Source: Mustelus asterias
Lineage: Eukaryota
Assembly (NCBI RefSeq): GCF_964213995.1
Contig: NW_027590423.1
Span: 248,001 to 312,000 of the forward strand
Length of the DNA: 64,000 nt
Direction: 5' to 3'
Positions 24,771-64,000 of this stretch are shown here, piece after piece; the first letter of the stretch is position 1, and every line of letters begins with the position of its first letter. The translations under genes and the position numbers were made by a program. Under the pieces are notes generated by a model. That model was not told where the DNA came from. It did not search any database and saw only the letters and a program-made list of their open reading frames with translations.

Positions 24771-26911
24771 GGTGATCAGGGGGAGAGTTAACAGAAAGCA
24801 GCTGGTGAGAATATACTGGCCGGTTTTAATTTAATCCAAATTAATGAATTAGAAACTTTTAACCTAAGGAATTGACATCCGAGGATTTCAGTTTAAAATC
24901 CCATTGAAGCTCCGTGTCTCATAATGGGATGTTTTTGTCTGTATTTAGTAATTAGTGACTTCATATCTCACAGCGAGATAAATAAAACTTTTTTCCAATT
25001 GATAGGGACAGCTCAATGGACAAAACTGGTGTGAGAAAGGGGCCAATCCTTTGAAAATGGAGGCAGAGAGGAGGCTTTGTTCAACTCCCATTCTTTCCCT
25101 GTCTTCAGCAGGCTGGGCAGGAAGTGTGAGCAGAGAGGGGGGGGAGAGACAGACACACACTGACACAATCCCCCCAATCCACTCACTCACACATCCCAAT
25201 TCCCCCTCCACTCGCTGGGTTGTGGGGAGCGGCTGCAAGGATTTTCAGGGCTGGTGTGGGGGGGTCAGGGGGTTTTTGAAATGGACGAACACGACCTACA
25301 GGGGAAAAGAAATAAAGTTTGAAACTAAACTAAAGAAACTAAAGGCAGGAGCTTGCAGAATCCATTGCCTCCCTGCATTAACATATCAATAGTCAGTCTG
25401 ACATTGCCACAAACTCCTCTGGGGTGAGAGGGGGAGGGGGGGTGAATTAGCATCTCAATAGAGAGACAGACATTGCAGACATGTCAGAGACTCAGGGTGG
25501 GGTTTGCATCCAGCACACTCAGGATAAATGTGAATCTGAGAGCCTTCAGTCTCCACACCAATAATCCCCCTGCACTGAAAACATTCCCACTCTGATTCAG
25601 TGTGTGTGTGTGTGTCTCAATCTGCGTTTTTACCTGTGCTTTGCTTGTGTTGACATGATGCTGAATGGACTTAAATGGAAATGCTGGACTCCTCGCTGTG
25701 ATATGTTGTGTGTCTTATTGTTAAAATGGCCTTGTCTCTTTTTCTCTCTCTTTTTAACCAATTTTTATCTCTTTTTCTCCTGAGGAATTTTGAAAACTGG
25801 GGATGTGTCGAGGATCCAAAGGACGGGAATGTTTGTGACCAGGACGAGGGAGAGGAGCTTCTTCCAGAGGGAGGGCTGACTGAGGCCTGTTGCTCAGGCT
25901 TCATCCCGAGTGAGTTGTGTCTGTTTATTAACCTGATCCAGATTTAATGTTTCATATCAGAGGGAGCGAGATCTGAATGAGAGTGGAATAGAGAGAGAGA
26001 GAGAGAAACACACAGGGAGGGAACTGTCTCAATCTCTTTAGTCTCTGCTTCACAACTGACTTGTTGTGTTTGGGTGTTACTGAGAGATTGTGTCACTGAG
26101 GGGAGATCCTGGGTTTTTTGCTGTGCTATGTAATTTAAATATTTTCTTGTATTTTAATTATTTTCTCTCTCTTTCCCCAAGAATTAATATTTAGATTTTA
26201 CTGAGAGATTGTGTAACTGAGAAGGGGGAATCCTGGCCTCTTGTGCTATTTAATTTAAAGAATTCTTGTATTTTAATTTATTATTTTCTCTTCTCCCCAG
26301 GAATTTGAATTTTGAAGACTGCAATGTGACTCGGAATCCTTGGACAAGGGGCTTTTCTCCAGAGGAGGATGGATGGACTGAAGCCTGTTCTATAGGCCGC
26401 AAGTGAGTTGTCGTCTCTTTATTACCCTGATCCAGGTTTAATTTTAATCTCGCTTCCTCGGATGAACCAGTTCTGGTTCGATTGTGGGGTGTGGGGGGGC
26501 AGCTGGAGTTTGAAACCCTGGGGTTAAAATATCCCGGCTTTGCAGTTAGTCAGAAACAGGTTAACCCTTTGCTGGGTGGCAGAGAGTAAATTAAATGTCT
26601 GTAATATGAAGCTGTCTCAAAGTTCGTTTTAAATCCAAGATAACAGGGATGGGAGACAGAGCGCTGTTCCTAATTGTTGAATAAAATTCATAGAGGCCTT
26701 TATAATTCAGTTTTCAGATGTTCAGACTTTCATTGTGTCCTCTCTGCAGCTTTTCCCCCATTCTGTCTATTTCTCTCTGCTTTCTCTCTCTCTTTCTCTC
26801 CCTTTCCTTCCTCGATCTGTCTCTCTTTTTTATTCCCTCTCTCTCCCTCTTTTTCCCAGGAAGTCATATTTTGTTGGACAATCTCTCAGTAAAATCTGAG
26901 AACGGGGAATC

Positions 26912-27263
26912 CTGTGCTCTTCATAGAAATCATAGAAACCCTACAGTACAGAAAGAGGCCATTCGGCCCATCGAGTCTGCACCGACCACAATCCCATCCA
27001 GGCCCTACCCCCATATCCCTACATATTTTACCCGCTAATCCCTCTAATCTACGCATCCCAGGACACTAAGGGGCAATTTTAGCATGGCCAATCAACCTAA
27101 CCCGCACATCTTTGGACTGTGGGAGGAAACCGGAGCACCCGGAGGAAACCCACGCAGACACGAGGAGAATGTGCAAACTCCACACAGACAGTGACCCAAG
27201 CCGGGAATCGAACCCAGGTCCCTGGAGCTGTGAAGCAGCAGTGCTAACCACTGTGCTACCGTG
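26912..27263 (-). mobile_element. HE1-type tRNA-derived SINE, full length, inserted in one ~120-bp unit
   Basis: A/B-box head GCACAGTGGTTAGCAC..GGTTCGATTCCC, core GTGGAGTTTGCACATTCTCC, and a CR1-like TTCTATG tail. Confidence 0.9.
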
Positions 27264-28804
27264 CTATTTAATTTAAACATTTTCTGGTATTTTAATATAT
27301 TTCTCTCTCTTTTACCCAAGAATTAACATTTAGATTTTACTGAGAGATTGTGTAACTGAGAAAGGGGAATCCTGGTCTCTTGTGCTATTTAATTTCAACG
27401 TTTTCTTGTATTTAAATTAATTATATTCTATCTCTTCCCAAGGAATTCATATTTAGTTAAACAATCTCTCAGTGAAATCTTAGAGGGGGGAATCCTGGGC
27501 TCTTGTGCTATTTAATTTAAACATTTTCTTGTACTTTAATTAATTATTTTCTCTTCTCCCCAGGAATTTGAATTTTGAAGACTACAATGTGACTCAGAAT
27601 CCTTGGACAAGGGGCTTTTCTCCAGAGGAGGATGGATGGACTGAGGCCTGTTCTATAGGCCGCATGTGAGTCGTCGTCTCTTTATTACAGGGATGGGAGA
27701 CAGACCGCTGTTCCTAATTGTTGAATAAAATTCACAGAGGCCTTTACAATTCAGTTTTCAGAAGTTCAAAATTTCATTTCATCCTCTCTGCAGCTTTTCC
27801 CCCATTCTGTCTATTTCCTCTCTGCTTTCTCTCTCTCTCCATCCCTTTCCTTCCTCTGTCTCTCTTTTTTATTCCCTCTCTCTCCCTCTTTTTCCCAGGA
27901 AATAATATTTTGTTGGACAATCTCTCAGTAAAATCTGAGAAGGGGGAATCCTGGGGCTCTTGTGCTATTTAATTTAAACATTTTCTGGTATTTTAATATA
28001 TTTCTCTCTCTTTTACCCAAGAATTAATATTTAGATTTTACTGAGAGATTGTGTAACTGAGAAAGGGGAATCCTGGGCTCTTGTGCTATTTAATTTCAAC
28101 ATTTTCTTGTATTTAAATTAATTATATTCTATCTCTTCCCAATATTTAGTTAGACAATCTCTCAGTGAAATCTTAGAAGGAGGAATCCTGGGCTCTTGTG
28201 CTATTTAATTTAAACATTTTCTTGTATTTTAATTAATTATTTTCTCTTCTCCCCAGGAATTTGAATTTTGAAGACTGCAACGTGACTCGGAATCCTTGGA
28301 CAAGGGGCTTTTCTCCAGAGGAGGATGGATGGACTGAGGCCTGTTCTATAGGCTTCAAGTGAGTTGTTGTCTCTTTATTACCCTGATCCAGGTTTAATTT
28401 TAATCTCGCTTTCTTGGATGAACCAGTCCTGGTTCGATTGTGGGATGGGGTGGGGTGGAGTTTAAAACCCTGGGGTTAAAATATCCCGGCTTTGCAATTG
28501 GTCACAAACATGTTAACCCTTTGCTGGGTGGCAAAGAGTAAATTAAATATCTGTAATATGAAACTGTCTAAAAGTTTGATGCAAATCCAAAATAACAGGG
28601 GTGGGAGAGAGTGATTTACCCGAATGTTAAATAAGATTCACAGAGGACATTACAATTCAATTTTCTGAAGTTCAGCCTTTACATTTATCTTCCCCTCTGC
28701 AGCTTTCTTCCCCATTCTATTTCGCTCTGCTTTTCTCTCTGTCTCTCTCTCCAGTATTTTTCCCCTATCTTCAGCTTTCTCTCCCTTCCTGTTTCTTTCC
28801 CCCT

Positions 28805-29135
28805 CTCGAGCATTCTTCCATATCTGTCCATCACTCACCAGAATGTCTCTCTCTCCCTCTCGAGCATTCTTCCATATCTGTCTATCACTCTCCAGAATGT
28901 CTCTCTCTCTCTCTCGAGCGTTCTTCCATATCTGTCCATCACTCTCCAGAATGTCTCTCTCTCTCTCTCGAGCATTCTTCCATATCTGTCTATCACTCTC
29001 CAGAATGTCTCTCTCTCTCTCTCTCTCGAGCGTTCTTCCATATCTGTCCATCACTCTCCAGAATGTCTCTCTCTCTCTCTCGAGCATTCTTCCATATCTG
29101 TCTATCACTCTCCAGAATGTCTCTCTCTCTCTCTC
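28805..29135 (+). repeat. Minisatellite of ~6 copies of a ~52-60-bp unit (CGAGCATTCTTCCATATCTGTCTATCACTCTCCAGAATG(TC)n)
   Basis: Direct tandem repetition. Confidence 0.9.
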
Positions 29136-32100
29136 TGGCTCCATCTTCCTTTGTGTCTCTTTAAACCGTTAATCAACAAAAACTGTGTTATTGTGAACAG
29201 GGAGACAGGAATATGGCATCGCTCATTTCAATGCAGAGTACATGAGAGAGAGGGAAAGAAACAGCTATGGACAGAGACAACGAGTGAGAAAGAGAGGGGA
29301 CAGGGACAAGGATCCAGACAGGAACATCCATCTTTACACTGAGTAAGAGAGACAGGAGCAGAGGGAGAAAAGAGAGGGAGATAGTGAAAGGGAGATGGAG
29401 GGAGTTGTAGAAATCAATCCCGGGAGGGCGATTTTAAAAAGTGTCCCGAAGGAATCAGCAGCCCCTTCCCAAACTGAAAGAGGGAGATGAGCAGCTCCTG
29501 GAGTCTGAGAGGGAGACAGGGATGGACTGGGGGGTTGTGGATATTTGAATTCAGTTTTAGGAGATTCTGTTTGTAGATTTCTCTCTCTCTGTTCATGCCA
29601 TTCTGATGTTTCTGAGAGATTGTGTAACTGAGAAGGGGGAATCCTGCGTTTCGGTGAGATTTAATTCAAATGGTTTCTTGTATTTAATTAATTTTCTCTC
29701 TCTTTTCCCCAAGAATTCATATCTAGTTAGACAATCTCTCAGTAAAATCTGAGAAGGGGAATCCTGGGCTCTTGTGCTATTTATTTTAAATATTTTCTGG
29801 TACTTTAATTATTTTCTCTCCCTTTTCCCCAAGAATTAATATTTAGATTTTACTGAGAGATTGTGTAACTGAGAAGGGGGAATCCTGGGCTCTCGTGCAA
29901 TTTAATTTAAACATTTTCTTGTATTTTAATTAATTATTTTCTCTTCTCCCCAGGGATTTGAATTTTGAAGACTGCAACGGGACTCGGAATCCTTGGACAA
30001 GGGGCTTTTCTCCAGAGGAGGATGGATGGACTGAAGCCTGTTCTATAGGCCGCATGTGAGTTGTTGTCTCTTTATTAACCTGATCCAGGTTTAATTTTAA
30101 TCTCGCTTCCTCGGATGAACCAGTTCTGGTCGATTGTGGGGTGTGGGGGGCTGGAGTTTGAAACCCTGGGGTTAAAATATCCCGGCTTTGCAATTAGTCG
30201 CAAACACGTTAACCCTTTGGTGGGTGGCAGAGTAAATTATGTATGAAACTGTCTATAAGTTTGCTTTAAATCTAAAATAACAGGGGTCGGAGACAGAGCA
30301 ATGAACCTAATTGTTGAATAAAATTCACAGAGGCCTTTACAATTCAGTTAACAGATGTTCAGATTTTCATTTCATCCTCTCCACAGCTTTTCCCCCATTC
30401 TGTCTATTTCTCTCTGCTTTTCTCTCCATTTCCTTCCTCTCTCTGCCTCTCTTTATTCTCTCTCTCTCCCTCTTTTTCCCAGGAATTAATATTTAGTTGG
30501 ACAAACTCTCAGTAAAACCTGGAAAGGGGCAATCCTGGGATTTTGTGCTGTGTAATTTTCATTCTGGGTGTCCCGGGGGGTTTGATTTCACTGTCTCAGC
30601 CCCTCTCTGCCTCACTCTCTCTCTCTCTCTGTATAAACTTTTCCCAAATTACAAAACACTCAACACAGCTGACTGCACCTTGTGGGATCTTGCTGGGGAT
30701 TTTGTTTTAAAAAGGGTGTTTTCTCAGAGGCAGTTTAAACCTTTCAGGGGACTGCGGGGAAGTCTCCAGACTTGGGACAACACACACACAGGGTTGGGGG
30801 CTGGGGTTGGCGGGCGGGGAGGTGGGCAGTCAGGTATACTGGTATTCTGGGAGACTGATATTCCCAACAAGGGCCAGAGGTCTCAGTGCTGAAACATATT
30901 AAACTGTTCAAACAGAGGCAGGCAGAAAGCCATGAGGCTTCAGAGCTCCCTGTAGATGCAAAGGTAACTCTGTCAAAAAGTAGCCACATGTGAAGTGGAA
31001 ACACCTTCCCTCAGCTTGTTACACACTGACCTTTCCACAACCCCAACATGTTTACAAACACTCGCTGCAGTTTCTGCAAACTTTGTATCAAACTGCCTCC
31101 CACTCTGCTCAATACTGACCCCCTCTCAACCTGGCACTGAACTAGTGTCTGAATTGAGACAGAGACACACAGACAGAGGTTTTAAAGTTGAAAGTTTTAA
31201 AGTTTGATTATTAGTGTCACAAGTAAGGCTTACATTAACACTGCAATGAAGTTACTGAGAGAGACAGAGACACACAGAGACAGAGACATAGATAAAGAGA
31301 CAGAGAGGATATTTAAAGTTTTAAAGTTTGTTTATTCGTGTCACAAGTAAGGCTTACATTAACGCTGCAGTTACTGAGAGAGACAGAAAGAGAGAGTTTT
31401 TAAAGTTGAAAGATTTAAAGTTTATTTCTTAGTGTCACAAGGCTTACATTAACACTGCAATGAAGTTAGTGAGAAAGACAGAGATAGAGGGAGCATCCAG
31501 AGTGGGTTCAGTAACACATTTATTGATCAGATATCTCTCTCTGTGACTCTTTAGCGATGAGATATTCAGCCAGGATGGTTTCACTGACCCTCTTCAGCAG
31601 GCAGATATTCCCAAATCCAGCCCAGGTCTCAGACACACACACCACTCACACATTCCCTCTGCTCTGTCCAAGGGAATATTTTAATCCAGGAATTTCTATT
31701 TTATATTTACAGGGTGACGGGGGGAGAAACTCAACTCAAAAATCCTGCAGTCTCTCCAAGCTGCTTTTAAATTTCAATTCAAACCCTGGGCCACATGGGA
31801 AGCTGCAGAGATTGGGAAACTTACCAAACCCAGTTTGTGTGTGAGAGTGTCTGCAGCTTTTGTGTCTTTGAACTTGCGAGGGTGCCAGGGGGAGAATGTC
31901 ACTGTCTTCACCTCTCTCTCTGCCTCTCTGTATAAAAAAATCACCAAATTAAACCACACTCAATAATGCGACCATACACAATTAATTATCAAATATCTGT
32001 CTCTCTCGCTTTATCTCTGTCTCTCCCCCTGTCCTCTCTCTCCCTGTCTCTTCTCGAGCAGAAACAGATGGAGACAGAGAGGCAGGGAGAGAGAGGAAGA

Positions 32101-32199: not shown

Positions 32200-35100
32200 T
32201 TTAATTCTGAGGGTCCTGAGAGAGGGATTTCACTGTCTCAGCCCCTCTCTGGCTCCCTCACTCTGTATAAACAATTCCCAAATTTAAAAAATGCTCAACA
32301 CAGCTGACTGCACTTTGTGGGATCTTGCTGTGCACCACAGGGATTTTAGTTTTAAAATGGGTTACTTTTAAGAGGGAGTTCCGGCCTTTCTGGAGATTTG
32401 GGATGATGCAGACACACACACACAGACACACACAGGGTAGTGAGTGGGGAAGGGGGCTCACAGCAGGCAAGAGAGTGGGGGAGGGGTGGGGGGAGGACTG
32501 TGTCCCATCTGATTCAGGTTCACATTGCTGCTGCTACTGTGGGATCTTGCTGTGCACACACTGGGCCTGTGGCCTTTGCCTGCACAGCAACAGCGCCCAC
32601 ACTTTTTATTTTCAAACAAAATCTGGCTCAGGGACCGCAAAGTGGGTTCAAGGAAAAAGCTTGAAAAGGGGTCGGGTAAATTCAAGCACTTTAATCACCG
32701 AGGCATCGTAGGCTCTTGAGCAAGTGCTGGGGAATGGGAGGAGGATAGATTGGGATTTGATGGCCAGCATGGAGCTGGTGGGCCGAAGGGCCTGTTTCTG
32801 TGCTGTGTGACGCCAGATTCTTTTCTCTCTCTCTTTTCCCAGGAATTTCTATTTGGATGGGGGGGGGGGTATAGAATTTCTCTGTCTCTCCAGTGTTCTT
32901 ACCAATCCCAGCACCCCTCCCCTCCCCTCTCTCTCTCCCCAGACATTCCTGTCTATATTTCATCTTTCAATAAAATGTTTAAGAAAACACCAATGTGAAT
33001 TGTTGTCAATTTAATTTGGGAAGAGAGAGAGAGAGAGAGAGGAGTGGATCCCATTTCCCACACACTCTCCTGCAGTCCTCACCCACAACATTTATTTAAT
33101 CTGGCCCTCACCAGGTTGTGTGTGTGTGGGATCTTGCTGTGCACACAGGTGGGGCTGGCTCCCTATTCCTCGCACTGTGACCGTGAGCAGAACTTTAAAC
33201 AGGAAAGATTGAGGGGAAGGATAAGGGTTGGGGAGGCGGAGGAGGCAGAGAGAGAGATAGAGAAATGGAGGGAGAGCTAAACAGAGAGGGGGTGGGGGAG
33301 GTGTGAGAGGGTCTCAGGAGGGGCAGGGGGAAAGAGACACAGAGTCTGGGGGTGTCCTCCTCCACTGTGGGACTGGCAGTGGGATCTTGCTGTGCAGAAT
33401 TACCTTCATTGTCATTTGAATCATTCATTCATTGACTAAGGGAGGGTGGGTGTGTGATTGTGGGATTATAAATATTGTTACCACTCTGAGGTGATGTTTC
33501 CCTCTGCGCTATTTTGTAACCCCCTAAAGGGATACTCCTCGCCTCGTAATCTTAAGTAAGTGTGTGTGAGACAGGAGGAAGCGACTGGTTTTAGACATTC
33601 AATCCCTACAGTGCAGAAGGAGGTCATTCGGCCCATCTAGTCTGTACCGACCACAATCCCACCCAGGCCCTATTCCCGTAACCCCACACTTTTAACCTGC
33701 TAATCCCCCTGACACTGGGGTCAATTTAACACGGCCAATCCACCCAACCCGCACAGCTTTGGACTGTGGGAGAAATTGGTAAATTAAAGCAAGATCTGAC
33801 ACTCTCTCCATCAGGAACAACCAAACAGGTCTTTAATTTAGACTGGGTGACAACCTTATTAAAACAATGAACAAACTGAATGAACTCCCCAGTAGAATGC
33901 TGTTCCAAGGACAAGACTCACTCAGGAATAATGAAATAAATCATTACAGAATAGAGTCACCCTCGAATAACCAGGCGTCTGTTGGAAGTGTGAACTTCCT
34001 TCTGCTGCTTGGGTCTGGAATACTTTCTGAGTTGGTTTCTGCTTCTATTTAGATGGTGATGTGATGAAGCTGTATATATTACTGCAGGATTCAGTATCAG
34101 ACTCTCCCTCCTTCAATCTAAAGAGGCAGCAAGGTCGCTCCCTCCCCGTTATTTCCCCCTGTCCCAGGTTTAAATACCCAGAATTTCCTCACAGTATTCC
34201 TGCAATTTGAGTGGCTTGAGGCTGTCACCAACGCCCCAATTTGAATGCAATTGGTTGTGTGCGTTTGAGAGCTTGTTTTAAAATCATTGGTCCAGTTCAA
34301 AGCCTGTTTTGCTCTGCTGGGACTCTGGCTGCTGCTTTGGACACAAATGTTGTAAAGTTGTGTTCTGCAGCCCTGCTTTCTGCAGTTTAAAATCCCCAGC
34401 ACAGAGACACAGGCTTTCTAAAGACACAACGCTGGATGGTTCGTTTTGGTTTTCTCAGCATTTCTTTTCAATATTTACATTTGTCAAACACCACATTTTT
34501 AACCTGATATACGCAACTTCATAACAATATTAGACAGGGAGAGAGAGATCGGGAGAGACAGAGAGAAAGTCACACAAAGAGAGAGAGAGACAGGGAGACA
34601 GAGAGAGAGAGAGAGTCACATGGAGGAATGAGGATGGGGCCTGGATGGGAATGTGGTTGGTGTAGACCTGATGGGCCGAATGGCCTCCTTCTGTACTGTA
34701 GGATTCTGTGATTCTGTAATGGGGGCTGCGTGCGGTGTGAGGGGAGGGTGGAAGGGGACAGGGGGTGGGGGCACCACAGGTTCCCTTTTCCCCCCTCCCC
34801 CCTCCCAGGCCCTGTCCGGGAGGTTTCGGGGCTGGAGGGGATTGTTCTGGTGAACTGGCCGGGGCCTGGGGAACCTGTTCTTTGTCCAGGATGTATAATG
34901 CAGCCTCTGTGACCAGGCCTCAATCCCAGGCCTAACCTCAGGAAGGCTTTTGCATTTTGCTCCTTTTCCAAACGGTGCCTGTGTTTAAATCGATGGGACT
35001 CGACGGTCGAATAAAACCTGCAGCAGCCACTTTAATACAAAGAACAGCACAGCACAGGAACAGGTCCTTTGGCCCTCCAAGCCTGCGCCGATCATGTTTA

Positions 35101-56279: not shown

Positions 56280-58405
56280 CTTGCTTCCTATTGTAGAGAT
56301 AGTTACACTTCTCGGGGCTAAATGGATCAAATGATATCGTGGAAAAGAAAGAACATAATGAGGATGGAGTAGGTTCAAAGGGCTGAAAGACCTCCTCATG
56401 CTCCTATTTTCTATGTTTCTATTGGACACTGAATCATAGTCATTCATTCCTGTAACACAAAGACGGAATGCTTCAGGGACTAGATGTAACCCCTGGATGT
56501 CACACTGACCAGTTAAAAATATACTTGCAGCGAGAAAATGCTGCCTGCTTTCGTATTGGACAGAAAGTGACAACATGCTCCAATTGTGTTGAATGCGGCT
56601 GTCTGACAGAGTCCCACCCACTTTGCAATCTGGCTTCACATCGCACCGCAGGGGTTGGGGTGCATTATTGACCCTAATAATCACATTTTAATTTGATGTT
56701 TTTAAGTTTCCTTTGTACTTTGATTTCTGTTCGGACTGTTCCCCCCTCCTTTTTGGGGAGCTGCCCCTTTTACTTTGTCCTGATTTAATCTGAGTTTGTT
56801 TATTTGGTTTGACCTAAAAAGAGGGCAATCTGGCTTCACTTATTGAGAACTGGCGTTTTTTCCAGGAACAGGACTGGCTTCTCTGCCAGAACTGCTGATT
56901 ATTACCCACCAATAAACGAGAGCTGCAGACATTTTTTTTCTGATTCGTGATCTTTCTCTCGGTGACTTTTCTGCTCTCTCGTTCTCGTTGTCACGGTCTC
57001 TGTCTTTATGGCGAGACAGCCATTCATTTAGGAAATTTCCTCACCGCTTTCAAATGGTTGGCAGCGAATACAAATAATTCAGAGCGGCGAATATATTTTT
57101 ACCAATTCAAAAAACATGCCGTTACTCGAAACCGCCACCAGGCGGCGTGACCATTATTGCGGTGTTTTCACATTGACGCCCAACAGTCAATAAATATCCT
57201 TTCTGTTTCATTCAACAAACCGTGGTGACCAGAGACCATGAGGATGACACGGCACATATAAATTGACGAGTAAGGTATAGAAAGAGAAACTGAATAAGCG
57301 TTTAAAGATGAAGGAGCAAGAGGATGTGTAGGTTGCTGTGCAGAGAATGAGGAATAAACACATTACGCTGATCAGTCAATAAAAGTACAGTTTCTTTATT
57401 AGTCACAAATAGGCTTACATTCACACTGCAATGAAGTTACTGTGAAAATCCCCTTGTCGCCACGCTCCGGTGCCTGTTCGGGAACACTGAGGGAGAATTT
57501 AGCACGACCAGTGCACCCTAAACAGCACGTCTTTGGATTGTGGGAAGAAACCGGAGCACCCAAAGGAAAGTCACGCAGACACGGGGAGAGCGTCCAGACT
57601 CCACGCAGACAATGACCCAAGCCGGCAATTGAGCCCAGGTCCCTGGCGCTGTGAGGTGGCAGTGCTAACCACTGCGCCACCGTGCCGCCCCTATCATCAT
57701 TGCATGATTCTAAACCGACGGTGACTATTGGAGCCAAAAGTAACAAAGAGATCAGATATTCCTGAAACATTTAATCGGTTGTTGCATACACCCACAGAAT
57801 CCTAGTGAATGTCCAGAACTTATTTGTTTAAACACAGCGTATCCCCGAATTGGACTCTGAATGACGGCAACTGACAACATCCCAGAATAATCTGATTAGT
57901 CAGAATGTCAACCACCAGTGTCCCACAGAATGAGAAAGGGAAGCTCCACTGTCCACCACCCCCACCACCAACCATTGACAGTCCTGGACTCGGCAGCAAA
58001 TCCCTGTCTGCAAATAAAACCCTGATTGGCCCATCTTCTTCAGCACGAAAAAAAAACCTGTTTGCAGCTGAAGCTCTGATCCTGCTGACATTGGGTGATT
58101 TTATTTTTCTAATCAAATGCCATGTTTTAGCAATTTATTAATCATGTGCTTTGGTTAATTGACATTTTCGTTCACAGCCGTTCAATGAGAGGATCAGAGC
58201 TCCCACCCTGAGCGGGTGCGGGCTCGGGAAAGGGGACGGGTTGAACTGAACTGTCGGCTCTCTGTTGGTTCTGGAAACTGTTGGGTGAATGCTTGATCCG
58301 AGGTTATTCTGGTTTCTCCTCGCTGTGTTTGAGCAGCTGAGAGCGCCGCTGCTCAATCTGCCCGCGATTCTAAACAATCCGCAGTAGGCAGCAGCTCCTA
58401 TCTAG

Positions 58406-58444
58406 AGTTTTTGTTCGGCGGTGAGAATGTTTTCTATCACTGTG
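58406..58444 (-). promoter_or_regulatory. 23-spacer recombination signal sequence of V1
   Basis: CACAGTG (58444-58438), a 23-nt spacer, then ACAAAAACT (58414-58406). Confidence 0.95.
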
Positions 58445-58905
58445 AGACTGAAAGCGCAGTAATAGCCGCCAGCGTCAGTTAGCTGCAGACCCGAGATGGT
58501 TAAACTGGTGATTTTATTCTCGATCTGGAGCTCAGCGGAGAAACGGATTGTAGCAAAACCTGCTTTATCCTCAGTGTCCCAAGAACTTTTCATCACTATA
58601 AATTCCGGTTGCTTCTCTGGGCGCTGTCGATACCAATGTAAGTAATAATTGGTGGCTGTGGTATCATAGGTACAGATCAATGTCACCGCTTCTCCTTCTG
58701 TCTTACCATCTGAGGGGAACCGCTGAGTGACAGAATCTTCATTAGTCACATCTGAAAAAACAAATAAACATAATCAAAGGGAAACTGGTCAGGTCAGAGG
58801 CTGGAAATATTTGAACCATACGTGAAATAAAGGATGAAATGTATTTCATCCCCAATTACCAGTCAAGAATGCTACCCACACAACCCAGATGCTGAGCCGC
58901 CGCAT
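58445..58905 (-). CDS. TRAV/TRDV: T-cell receptor alpha/delta-type V gene segment (V1), apparently functional: leader exon 58905-58860 and V exon 58751-58445
   Basis: The leader MRRLSIWVVWVAFLT ends in a phase-1 G|GTAATT donor; the acceptor is TTTTTTCAG. The V exon reads DVTNEDSVTQ...VTLICTYDTT..YYLHWYRQ..PEFI..RFS..LTISGLQLTDAGGYYCAFS, with conserved Cys23, Trp41 and Cys104, and is followed directly by a 23-RSS. Confidence 0.93.
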
Positions 58906-60280: not shown

Positions 60281-60663
60281 AATAGAAAAGCTCTGATTTC
60301 AATCAGTTATTATTTCTGCTCCACGGACTTGAAAATGGGACAATTCTGAGGCTGCATTTGACAATAGATCACTTTTAAAATGTGTGGCCGGGCAGATAGG
60401 CACCGAATCCAGAATCTTTCTAAGTACAGATTAAGGGAGTTATTCACCCGGGATAATCTGCAGATTTTGTGCGGATGGGGTCGGAGAATGGTTGGATTTG
60501 ATCCGGGAATAATAGGACGGCAAATGTGACATTTCACAACACTGACAATGGCTGAGCTCAGTGGGGGGAATATTATTCAGCTGGGGCTGTATTGTGGCCT
60601 TCATTTTCTGCGCATTTTCGTTGAGATCCGACTCTTTTTCTCTGACCCTGAAACGTCTGCGTC

Positions 60664-60702
60664 ACTTTTTGTCTGAGGCCCGCGGGAGCCTCACTCACTG
60701 TG
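60664..60702 (-). promoter_or_regulatory. 23-spacer recombination signal sequence of V2
   Basis: CACAGTG (60702-60696), a 23-nt spacer, then ACAAAAAGT (60672-60664). Confidence 0.95.
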
Positions 60703-61173
60703 GGTCTCAGTGCACAGTAATACACGGCGCTGTCTCTCATCTTCAAATCTTTCATGGACAAGTGAAAAGTGCTTTGTGTCTGGTTGAGATTCCCGCTGAA
60801 GTGTCCAAAGCCGGGAGCCGTATCGGTAAACCCATAACTATTGGCTCTGAGCAGATACTGAGGAGCTCGGTGTGGATACTGGCGATACCAGAACAGGTCA
60901 TGTTGTATAGCTGAACTCGGCACAGAGTAACTGCAGGGTATTGCTGAATCTTCACCCTCTGCTGCTTCAACTCCTGGTTCTGACTGGAACACTGAGTCTC
61001 CATTACTCATCTCTGAAAATAAACAGCGGACGCACAGCGGGTTAGGAGACAGAGGAAGACGATAGTCACACAGCGCTGGGAAAGGGAAATTGCACAAGGT
61101 TTGCGATATACTTTACAATCTGTGACCAGAATCACTGACCTGGGATCAGAGCAATAACTAGAATCAGGAACAT
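60703..61173 (-). CDS. TRAV/TRDV: T-cell receptor alpha/delta-type V gene segment (V2), apparently functional: leader exon 61173-61140 and V exon 61012-60703
   Basis: The leader MFLILVIALIP ends in a phase-1 G|GTCAGT donor; the acceptor is ATTTTCAG. The V exon reads EMSNGDSVFQSEP..AIPCSYS..LFWYRQYPHRAPQYLL..FHLSMKDLKMRDSAVYYCALRP and is followed by a 23-RSS. Confidence 0.93.
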
Positions 61174-62970: not shown

Positions 62971-64000
62971 TTATTTTACAGAGTGACGAGTTTCAACTTC
63001 GACCAAGGTCATTGTGAATCCACTCAGCGGGGGCGGCTCAAGATTTTCCCATTCCTCTGTTTTTTCTCTCGAGCGTGAGCTGCTTAGCACCCGCGTCACC
63101 ATCTGCCGCGCTGCCACTCTGGTAAGGAAGGATCTCAGGGCGGGTAAAAAACAACAAAATATCAGTCCCAGAATGATTATTGTTGCGATTGCTACAGCTC
63201 CAGCTTTGGCAAACCACGCCCCCCATCTTCCTAATATTCTGTCCAGCCAACTCCATACCTCATGCCCAAACCCAGCATTTTCTTTCACTTCTTTCTTAAG
63301 ATTTCTTAACTTATTCATGGCTTGTGTAAATGACCCCTCTGGATTAGTGTTATTAGGGATAAATGTGCAGCACTGATCCCCAAACATAACACACACCCCT
63401 CCTTTCTCTGCCAGGAGCCAATCTAACGCCTGTCGATTTTGCCACGCCATTTTGCTGGTCGCATCCAACTGCTCTCCTAAGGCCTCCAGGGCATCATTCG
63501 TATAATTAATAAACCTCTGCTGATTATAATAGATGTAATTGATCCACTCAGTATTCTTGCTGGGTGTGATCCAAACAAAGAGGGATTCAAACCCTGCAGC
63601 TATTTCGTTCCTAGCTTTGAACTCATTCGGGATGCCGCGGGGCTGTCCGATTGCGTCCAATTTTATCGTAGGGTCAGGGGTATATGCCCTCTTAATTCTT
63701 TGTGATTTAATTTCTCTTTCCCCCGGTAGTATCACAATGCTCTGGGCAAGCATAACTCGAGCACATAGTCCTTTCCAATTCTGTGGTAATTTTGCCAATA
63801 GCCCTTTCTCCGGGCCACAAAGCCACCAGAGATCGGCCAGTTGATTTTCTTGATAGTCTAACACAAAAGGAGGGGGTGCCCATCCCCCTCCTGAGAGGAT
63901 CAGATAAAGAGCATCGGTTATATTCCAAATCCTTTCACACTCTCCTGTGTAATTTCCCACACTACTTCCTGTGCTACTTTCCCTCCAATAGCAATCTCGG
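62971..64000 (-). CDS. env: Endogenous retrovirus env (C-terminal SU and complete TM); the frame is open to the window edge; gamma-type env resembling HERV-I/PABLB-like envs
   Basis: It has a furin site RIKR, the motif DAIGQPRGIPNEFKARNEIAAGFES and the motif WINYIYYNQQRF. It also has an immunosuppressive domain WQNRQALDWLLAEKGGVC, CX6CC (CVMFGDQCC) and a hydrophobic anchor AGAVAIATIIILGLIFCCFL. There are no stops or frameshifts. Confidence 0.93.
   Translation of the reverse strand, partial: RDCYWRESSTGSSVGNYTGECERIWNITDALYLILSGGGWAPPPFVLDYQENQLADLWWLCGPEKGLLAKLPQNWKGLCARVMLAQSIVILPGEREIKSQRIKRAYTPDPTIKLDAIGQPRGIPNEFKARNEIAAGFESLFVWITPSKNTEWINYIYYNQQRFINYTNDALEALGEQLDATSKMAWQNRQALDWLLAEKGGVCVMFGDQCCTFIPNNTNPEGSFTQAMNKLRNLKKEVKENAGFGHEVWSWLDRILGRWGAWFAKAGAVAIATIIILGLIFCCFLPALRSFLTRVAARQMVTRVLSSSRSREKTEEWENLEPPPLSGFTMTLVEVETRHSVK

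Follow-up and report, generated by a model that had tools for sequence, protein, structure and literature searches.

Do short complementary elements scattered among duplicated exons constitute a switch for splicing, or can they simply accumulate as a mutation is copied? This question is raised by a 4.5-kb array in a stretch of 64,000 nucleotides from Mustelus asterias (contig NW_027590423.1, positions 248,001 to 312,000 of the forward strand; hereafter the window), in which ~120-bp units carrying a 22-nt core are interleaved with four exon-like pieces, E1 to E4, behind a further exon, Z. The core comes in two forms, A and B, each the near-exact reverse complement of the other. A first-pass annotation of the window had read this arrangement as a candidate switch operated by competing RNA pairing, and had named a single micro-inversion followed by amplification as the simple alternative. 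It is this alternative that fits best: we consider it probable that a neutral, inherited micro-inversion of 22 nt was copied together with its surroundings, and that the A:B stems are more likely its by-product than a splicing switch. In short, we posit an ordinary mutation within an extraordinary amount of duplication.

The orientation of the core is fixed at each position. Pattern matching across the 3.68-Gb genome, on which all genome-wide counts given here are based, returned 2870 exact matches to a 20-nt core pattern against 0 for a reversed control, so the pattern is not a product of chance. A-type left flanks are followed by an A core 898 times and by a B core 0 times, whilst B-type left flanks are followed by a B core 1451 times and by an A core 0 times; discordant flank-plus-core matches thus number 0 of 2349 in the assembly sequence. 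Nor does any flank haplotype carry both orientations, either among 83 haplotypes in 516 units or among 45 left-flank haplotypes in 1158 units. The cores had been described as "flip-flopped", and in the sense of switching this term has to be abandoned: the discordant count and the absence of a two-orientation flank haplotype rule out active flipping of the core in the assembly. Position 4 of the core is non-complementary to A in 597 of 601 B cores, a shared mismatch that points to one ancestor for B. The right flanks are common to A and B units, as is expected from crossovers between units.

How might such an inversion have arisen and spread? The ~120-bp units combine an acceptor-like tract with exon-start-like sequence ahead of the true acceptor, and are interleaved with duplicated exons and inversion-bearing; we suggest that they would be decayed duplicates of an acceptor and exon start. 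Within one such unit, a 22-nt intron segment would have been inverted once, perhaps through a template switch, or through microhomology-mediated repair, where TTAG and CTGA form short imperfect inverted flanks. The inverted form would then have spread by tandem duplication, unequal crossover and the amplification of a ~25-kb segment to ~440 copies. In pre-mRNA, the resulting A and B cores would form stems with a possible incidental effect on splicing, and this pairing is probably not selectively maintained. Having its origin within a tandem unit, the inversion would have left the two forms next to each other as inverted repeats.

Indeed, micro-inversions that measure 17-33 nt and lie between inverted repeats, often imperfect, of 3-75 nt constitute a known class of mutation (PMC8755829; PMC5453318). 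The array resembles the human-chimpanzee cases described there in that a 22-nt segment falls within 17-33 nt and is a near-exact reverse complement (PMC8755829), and it shares with known micro-inversions, and with the template-switch model, short imperfect inverted flanks that are directly adjacent (PMC8755829; PMC5453318). Unlike those micro-inversions, that of the array would have arisen in a tandem unit and was amplified to thousands of copies, and its flanking repeat lies at or below their shortest class (PMC8755829).

Sequence comparison is suggestive of A as the ancestral orientation. Scored against exon starts, A is higher than B in 15 of 15 comparisons, none significant alone, and it is also higher in both comparisons with the homologous block of a sister family (shuffle P 0.03 and 0.17). 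In these comparisons with exon starts, a homology of core A is consistent in direction without reaching significance.

A core scan of the 64 kb bears out the positions, orientations and order that the first-pass annotation had given for 12 cores, six of form A and six of form B: A A E1 B A B E2 B A B E3 A B A E4 B. Form A is exact in four of its six cores and form B in one of six; outside the array, the 64 kb hold only 5 core-like matches at up to 6 mismatches, all in microsatellite sequence and with 5-6 mismatches. The features of the array and of the segment that carries it are as follows, with a slash marking splice junctions within motifs.

approx. 23000-49500, plus strand: multi-copy segment common to the paralogues at ~91-97% identity (paralogue alignment)
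25720-25909, plus strand: exon Z, its 5' end upstream of 25720 and its 3' part homologous to the 102-nt exons; donor GTGAGT at 25910; a contig of sequencing run X2 covers 25720-25910 and continues upstream
26074-26095, plus strand: core A of class A_first, whose left flank differs (core scan)
26195-26216, plus strand: core A before E1, with a weak AAG acceptor-like site (AG at 26180-26181); predicted partner B26874 across E1 (core scan, fold)
26301-26402, plus strand: exon E1, 102 nt, acceptor CCCCAG and donor GTGAGT
26874-26895, plus strand: core B of class B_postE, preceded by a long pyrimidine tract and CAG/G
26921-27264, no strand assigned: interspersed-repeat insertion of ~340 bp splitting a B-A pair
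27334-27478, plus strand: cores A27334 and B27457, a predicted local stem of 20.6 pairs (core scan, fold)
27564-27665, plus strand: exon E2, its nearest cores B and B, non-complementary
27913-28171, plus strand: cores B27913, A28035 and B28150; A28035:B28150 a predicted local stem
28257-28358, plus strand: exon E3
28803-29135, no strand assigned: 54-bp tandem repeat of 6.1 copies, intronic; the length of its host intron differs among paralogues
29606-29868, plus strand: cores A29606, B29727 and A29847; local stem predicted for B29727:A29847; alignment of the sister family with A29606 is in A orientation
29954-30055, plus strand: exon E4
30497-30518, plus strand: last core B, with a central mismatch to A in this copy and no predicted pairing with any A (core scan, duplex prediction)

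The four exon-like pieces are each 102 nt long, with CCCCAG acceptors and GTGAGT donors. The insertion, which we take to be a short interspersed element (SINE), leaves its B-A pair 460 nt apart here, compared with 121 nt in most other arrays. Other parts of the earlier description hold partially. The direct flanks said to be common to all 12 units are present as TTAG in only seven and as CTGA in only nine. The decoy acceptor CCCAAG/AATT, said to precede most units, has its exact form in five; an acceptor-like AG does precede nine of the 12, the others being one CCCAAG/GAATT and three strong CCCAG/GAA. Complementary cores, said to bracket every exon, are the nearest ones for three of the four (E1 A..B, E3 B..A, E4 A..B), but E2 (B..B) is bracketed in this way only if non-nearest cores are counted.

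Would these cores pair? Partition-function folds covered sub-regions of 1.1-1.5 kb within the array, and A:B duplexes reached -22 to -38 kcal/mol in silico. Local stems with ~100-nt loops are predicted for A27334:B27457, A28035:B28150 and B29727:A29847. The proposal that any A pairs with any B is upheld by strong in-silico duplexes for all but the last B, and the looping out of decoys by neighbouring pairs agrees with the ~100-nt loops but not with the intron between Z and E, which holds A cores only. Long-range pairs looping out a 102-nt exon find an example in the stem around E1; none is predicted around E2 or E4 in the folded sub-regions, and the E3 bracket was not folded as one piece. Across 403 exons in the paralogues, the nearest cores are complementary in 230 and of the same orientation in 168, with no downstream core in the fetched stretch in 5.

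In this respect the array does recall the docking and selector elements of Dscam1 and serpent, in which, according to the sections cited, complementary intronic elements among duplicated exons likewise form competing predicted stems (PMC4691838). The same sections describe one or two docking sites with many selectors, unlike the equal and interleaved A and B cores of the array; the array also differs in that its exons are near-identical and likely non-coding and its paralogues lack compensatory change. In those sections, the case for docking/selector pairing is built on compensatory evolution and mutational rescue (PMC4691838).

We looked for the first of these signatures in 136 core-bearing paralogous loci of this one genome, a non-random set out of ~443 (best BLAST hits and first-listed contigs), in which a few loci are adjacent parts of one region. 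The compensatory A/B changes that the first-pass annotation had proposed as a check were not found among these paralogues. Central B mismatches carried by 20 and 29 copies, and an outer one carried by 46, have 0 complementary A partners, and five A/B variant pairs showed no co-occurrence beyond a near-fixed allele. Wobble-compatible substitutions are not in excess either, at 5 of 19 in B and 2 of 16 in A, compared with expected fractions of 0.35 and 0.20.

Several observations nevertheless weigh against a neutral, inherited micro-inversion, and deserve to be set out together. The flanking inverted repeat TTAG/CTGA is only 2 nt long when exact, or 3 of 4 with one mismatch; perfect TCAG/CTGA flanks occur in three A_afterGap units. 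The exon-spanning stem A26195:B26874, of ~21 pairs, is predicted both in the window array and in the commonest paralogue architecture. A comparison of nine class representatives shows no variation in 16 of 22 core columns, as against 20 of 52 in the right flank (Fisher P 0.01), and the core centre holds a 12-nt invariant run across A and B classes (permutation P 0.003), both P values being too small as the nine classes are related. A test set in advance and applied to 40 new loci gave 2 new central alleles where 6.7 were expected (P 0.036) and 5 new whole-core alleles where 12.3 were expected (P 0.017), and a deficit remains after trinucleotide correction, at 13 versus 30.6.

How far does this core deficit reach? 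Position-matched blocks gave 15 variants in 198 core sites, compared with ~0.13 per site nearby. Once alleles matching another class are removed, the deficit weakens to 13 versus 20 (P 0.07), and after this removal of recombinant alleles it is one-sided: 4 versus 11.3 in A (P 0.013) and 9 versus 8.7 in B, with the left flank as quiet as the core. These allele tests dropped units that diverge from their class reference by more than 12%, dropped alleles lying 3 columns or fewer from a gap, and excluded 13 unclassified "B_other" units, 8 of which are A cores read on the wrong strand. We conclude that noisy right flanks account for one part of the deficit and leave another part unexplained. A deficit confined to A fits selection on a duplex poorly; copying from arm to arm, or a bound motif, could also yield it.

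Splicing itself can be approached through sequencing runs, of which 23 were listed, none on record as RNA. Four of them (X1, X2, X3 and X23) were compared as contigs over window positions 25720-26480; the run shares of 0.06-0.08 likely reflect the SINE. In X2, which comes from a related organism 90-99% alike and is RNA by our guess, two contigs (depths 38 and 13) place the end of Z directly before the start of E, in one contig (depth 12) an E end is joined to an E start (CAT/GGA), and in another a variant exon, E', is joined to an unrelated exon upstream. The joins in this one run match the expectation for spliced RNA, and it is the true acceptor, rather than its acceptor-like copies, that is seen joined. 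The X2 contigs have no cover over the A units, and this absence of cover is not evidence. No splice joins were seen in X1 and X23, which cover intron sequence, or in X3, which has one unspliced contig over both A cores.

What do these joins say of a switch? The Z-E join spans an intron with A cores only, so no local A:B hairpin is available there to hide a decoy acceptor. The E-E join is not callable as back-splicing, since linear neighbours also show the CAT/GGA allele pair, 32 times, as do single exons, 74 times. An attempt to identify by alleles which E joins Z failed, because alleles are shuffled across array positions. Inverted repeats can drive the back-splicing that gives circular RNA, and the array shares with such cases a complementary pair that brackets E1 and is predicted to pair, along with the E-end to E-start join in one run. 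It departs from them in that its stems are only ~22-26 bp, many of its exons are unbracketed, and the join is equally explained by linear splicing of tandem exons.

The sister family offers a further comparison. Its exon E', present in 189 copies, is ~80% identical to E across the exon and the flanking intron, and the family has lost the core centre. No A or B core lies within 1.5 kb of E' in any of the six inspected copies, nor in four stretches of 30-70 kb. E' is joined to its upstream exon in X2 even though the inspected copies have no cores nearby. There are 132 copies of this upstream exon, and in three contigs its distance from E' is 24-34 kb; the stretch ahead of the exon, GC-box- and CCAAT-like, is presumably promoter-like. 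No downstream zinc-finger or other coding exon of the family was found in the four stretches. Several downstream blocks of the sister loci (L171-L176, L177-L182 and L183-L202) are shared with the window segment.

If competing RNA pairing were selected, local hairpins would hide decoy acceptors, the E1 stem would promote skipping or back-splicing, and selection would keep the complementarity. The strong predicted stems, both local and E1-spanning, the slower change of the core centre and the spliced-looking joins in one run, including that of E end to E start, all speak for such a switch, and this much of the first-pass interpretation stands. What is missing from it is any sign that the pairing is selected or regulatory. 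There are no compensatory changes, and a G:G or G:A mismatch is fixed; disruptive central B changes have spread through subfamilies, whilst within-class constraint is seen in A and not in B; nearest cores share their orientation around 168 of 403 exons, and neither E2 nor E4 has a predicted exon-spanning stem. Linear neighbours, too, show the E-end/E-start allele pair of the join, 32 times; the sister family does without cores near its exon in the inspected copies, and no long open reading frame (ORF) was found that could profit from isoforms. On balance we think a selected switch unlikely. Perhaps, more ambitiously, one micro-inversion became a modular, self-propagating RNA-pairing code, in which duplicated modules bring their own cores, the 12-nt centre is held by selection or by arm copying, and the E1 stem sets skipping or circularisation; to this, too, we give only a small chance.

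A different use of the same origin would be that the core centre is kept uniform by arm-to-arm copying, through fold-back template switching or hairpin repair in DNA, or by an orientation-independent protein-binding motif. Either would suit the 12-nt invariant centre across A and B classes, and copying in particular would suit two rare alleles: the A_mid core of L104 matches a B allele exactly in reverse complement, and one B_postE lineage of 4 copies (L011, L015, L144 and L167) has the A-matching base at the usual mismatch, both being G-to-C transversions that restore complementarity. However, these are only two events in ~1160 cores, each attainable by chance, the position-4 mismatch persists in 597 of 601 B cores, and the loss of the core centre in the sister family argues against copying and bound motif alike, which leaves this explanation doubtful. 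That the A:B duplex is a source of 22-nt small RNAs, akin to microRNAs or small interfering RNAs, is suggested by the core length and the near-perfect predicted stems, but with loops of ~100 nt and no Rfam match on the array it is very improbable. Least credible of all is an actively invertible DNA segment, flipping somatically or recurrently: it would account for both orientations between shared flanks, and it is contradicted by 0 discordant matches in 2349, by the lack of a flank haplotype with both forms and by orientation-private bases.

A neutral micro-inversion, copied as part of a larger segment, would make of this array a clean illustration that duplicated exons can acquire complementary elements with no help from selection; elements of that kind are the proposed raw material for Dscam-like control by pairing. 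With partners that are perfect in some copies, mismatched in others and missing in yet others, the hundreds of natural copies also amount to a natural experiment, both on the relation of 22-bp stems to splicing and on the homogenisation of arms.

Turnover of the arrays proceeds by modules. Of the Z-bearing loci, 125 of 126 start Z-A-A, and the 43 orders found among the 136 loci differ mainly by whole modules gained or lost (BAB-E, ABA-E, AB-E). Fourteen of the 136 consist of Z-A-A only, without B or E (including L079, L085, L121, L123 and L130); when L079 and L085 are compared with the window, sequence resumes near window position 30977, so that all E exons and B cores are deleted. Cores are also found in other settings. 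On one chromosome-scale contig, a 234-bp B-A pair is enclosed by the arms of a short inverted-repeat element (L051:7225-7460, G000:C6), presumably a capture resembling that by a miniature inverted-repeat transposable element, and on another a lone B unit lies within another repeat (L054:7150-7300, G000:C17). At L081-L083 (G000:C71), a Z-A-A copy is followed at 27-47 kb downstream by several ORFs that read as C2H2 zinc-finger-like genes, some of them on the same strand.

What, then, is the host of these arrays? The segment measures ~25 kb and has ~440 copies, and the Z marker, of which there is one per array, has 443 copies genome-wide. We infer a terminal-exon-like block with an AATAAA near 34810-35030. 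Neither the window copy of the segment nor five paralogous stretches yielded a long non-retroelement ORF, and there is no Pfam match for the Z or E peptides; an Rfam search of 24.3-47.5 kb gave 45 matches, none at gathering score and none on the array. A protein-coding host was considered and rejected: although E can be read as an open frame of 33 codons, some copies are 100 nt long and frameshifted, and replacement changes are numerous. The ORF of Z, 61 codons from an ATG in Z and open in 103 of 122 copies, fared no better as a coding candidate, as it begins in a pyrimidine tract, would stop at the E start and has no Pfam match; among longer proteins, 19 candidate relatives were considered, none at E<=0.1. 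We regard a family of spliced non-coding transcripts as the likely host. We did not find the array family described in the open-access full-text literature searched. This gene-like and probably non-coding host of ~440 copies may merit more attention than the cores themselves.

The segment is bordered by satellites. Upstream of it, window positions 1-24300 hold long (GT/GA) microsatellite arrays interleaved with a 69-bp satellite, and at its other end a 56-bp satellite occupies 48471-49526; both recur beside paralogues. Beyond the segment, a broken exon resembling a G-protein-coupled receptor (GPCR), with stops and a frameshift, lies on the plus strand at 51320-52250; we take it to be GPR139-like, and two fragments of it gave no Pfam match. 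ORFs similar to this GPCR-like exon, of ~310-350 aa, lie near other arrays and sister loci. Two immunoglobulin V-set segments follow on the minus strand, at 60573-61109 and 58405-58773 (Pfam PF07686, E 1e-13 and 1e-14), each succeeded by what reads by eye as a heptamer, a 23-nt spacer and a nonamer, and presumably both are V genes of the T-cell-receptor alpha/delta type. Finally, a remnant that by eye reads like a retroviral envelope gene lies on the minus strand at ~63000-64000.

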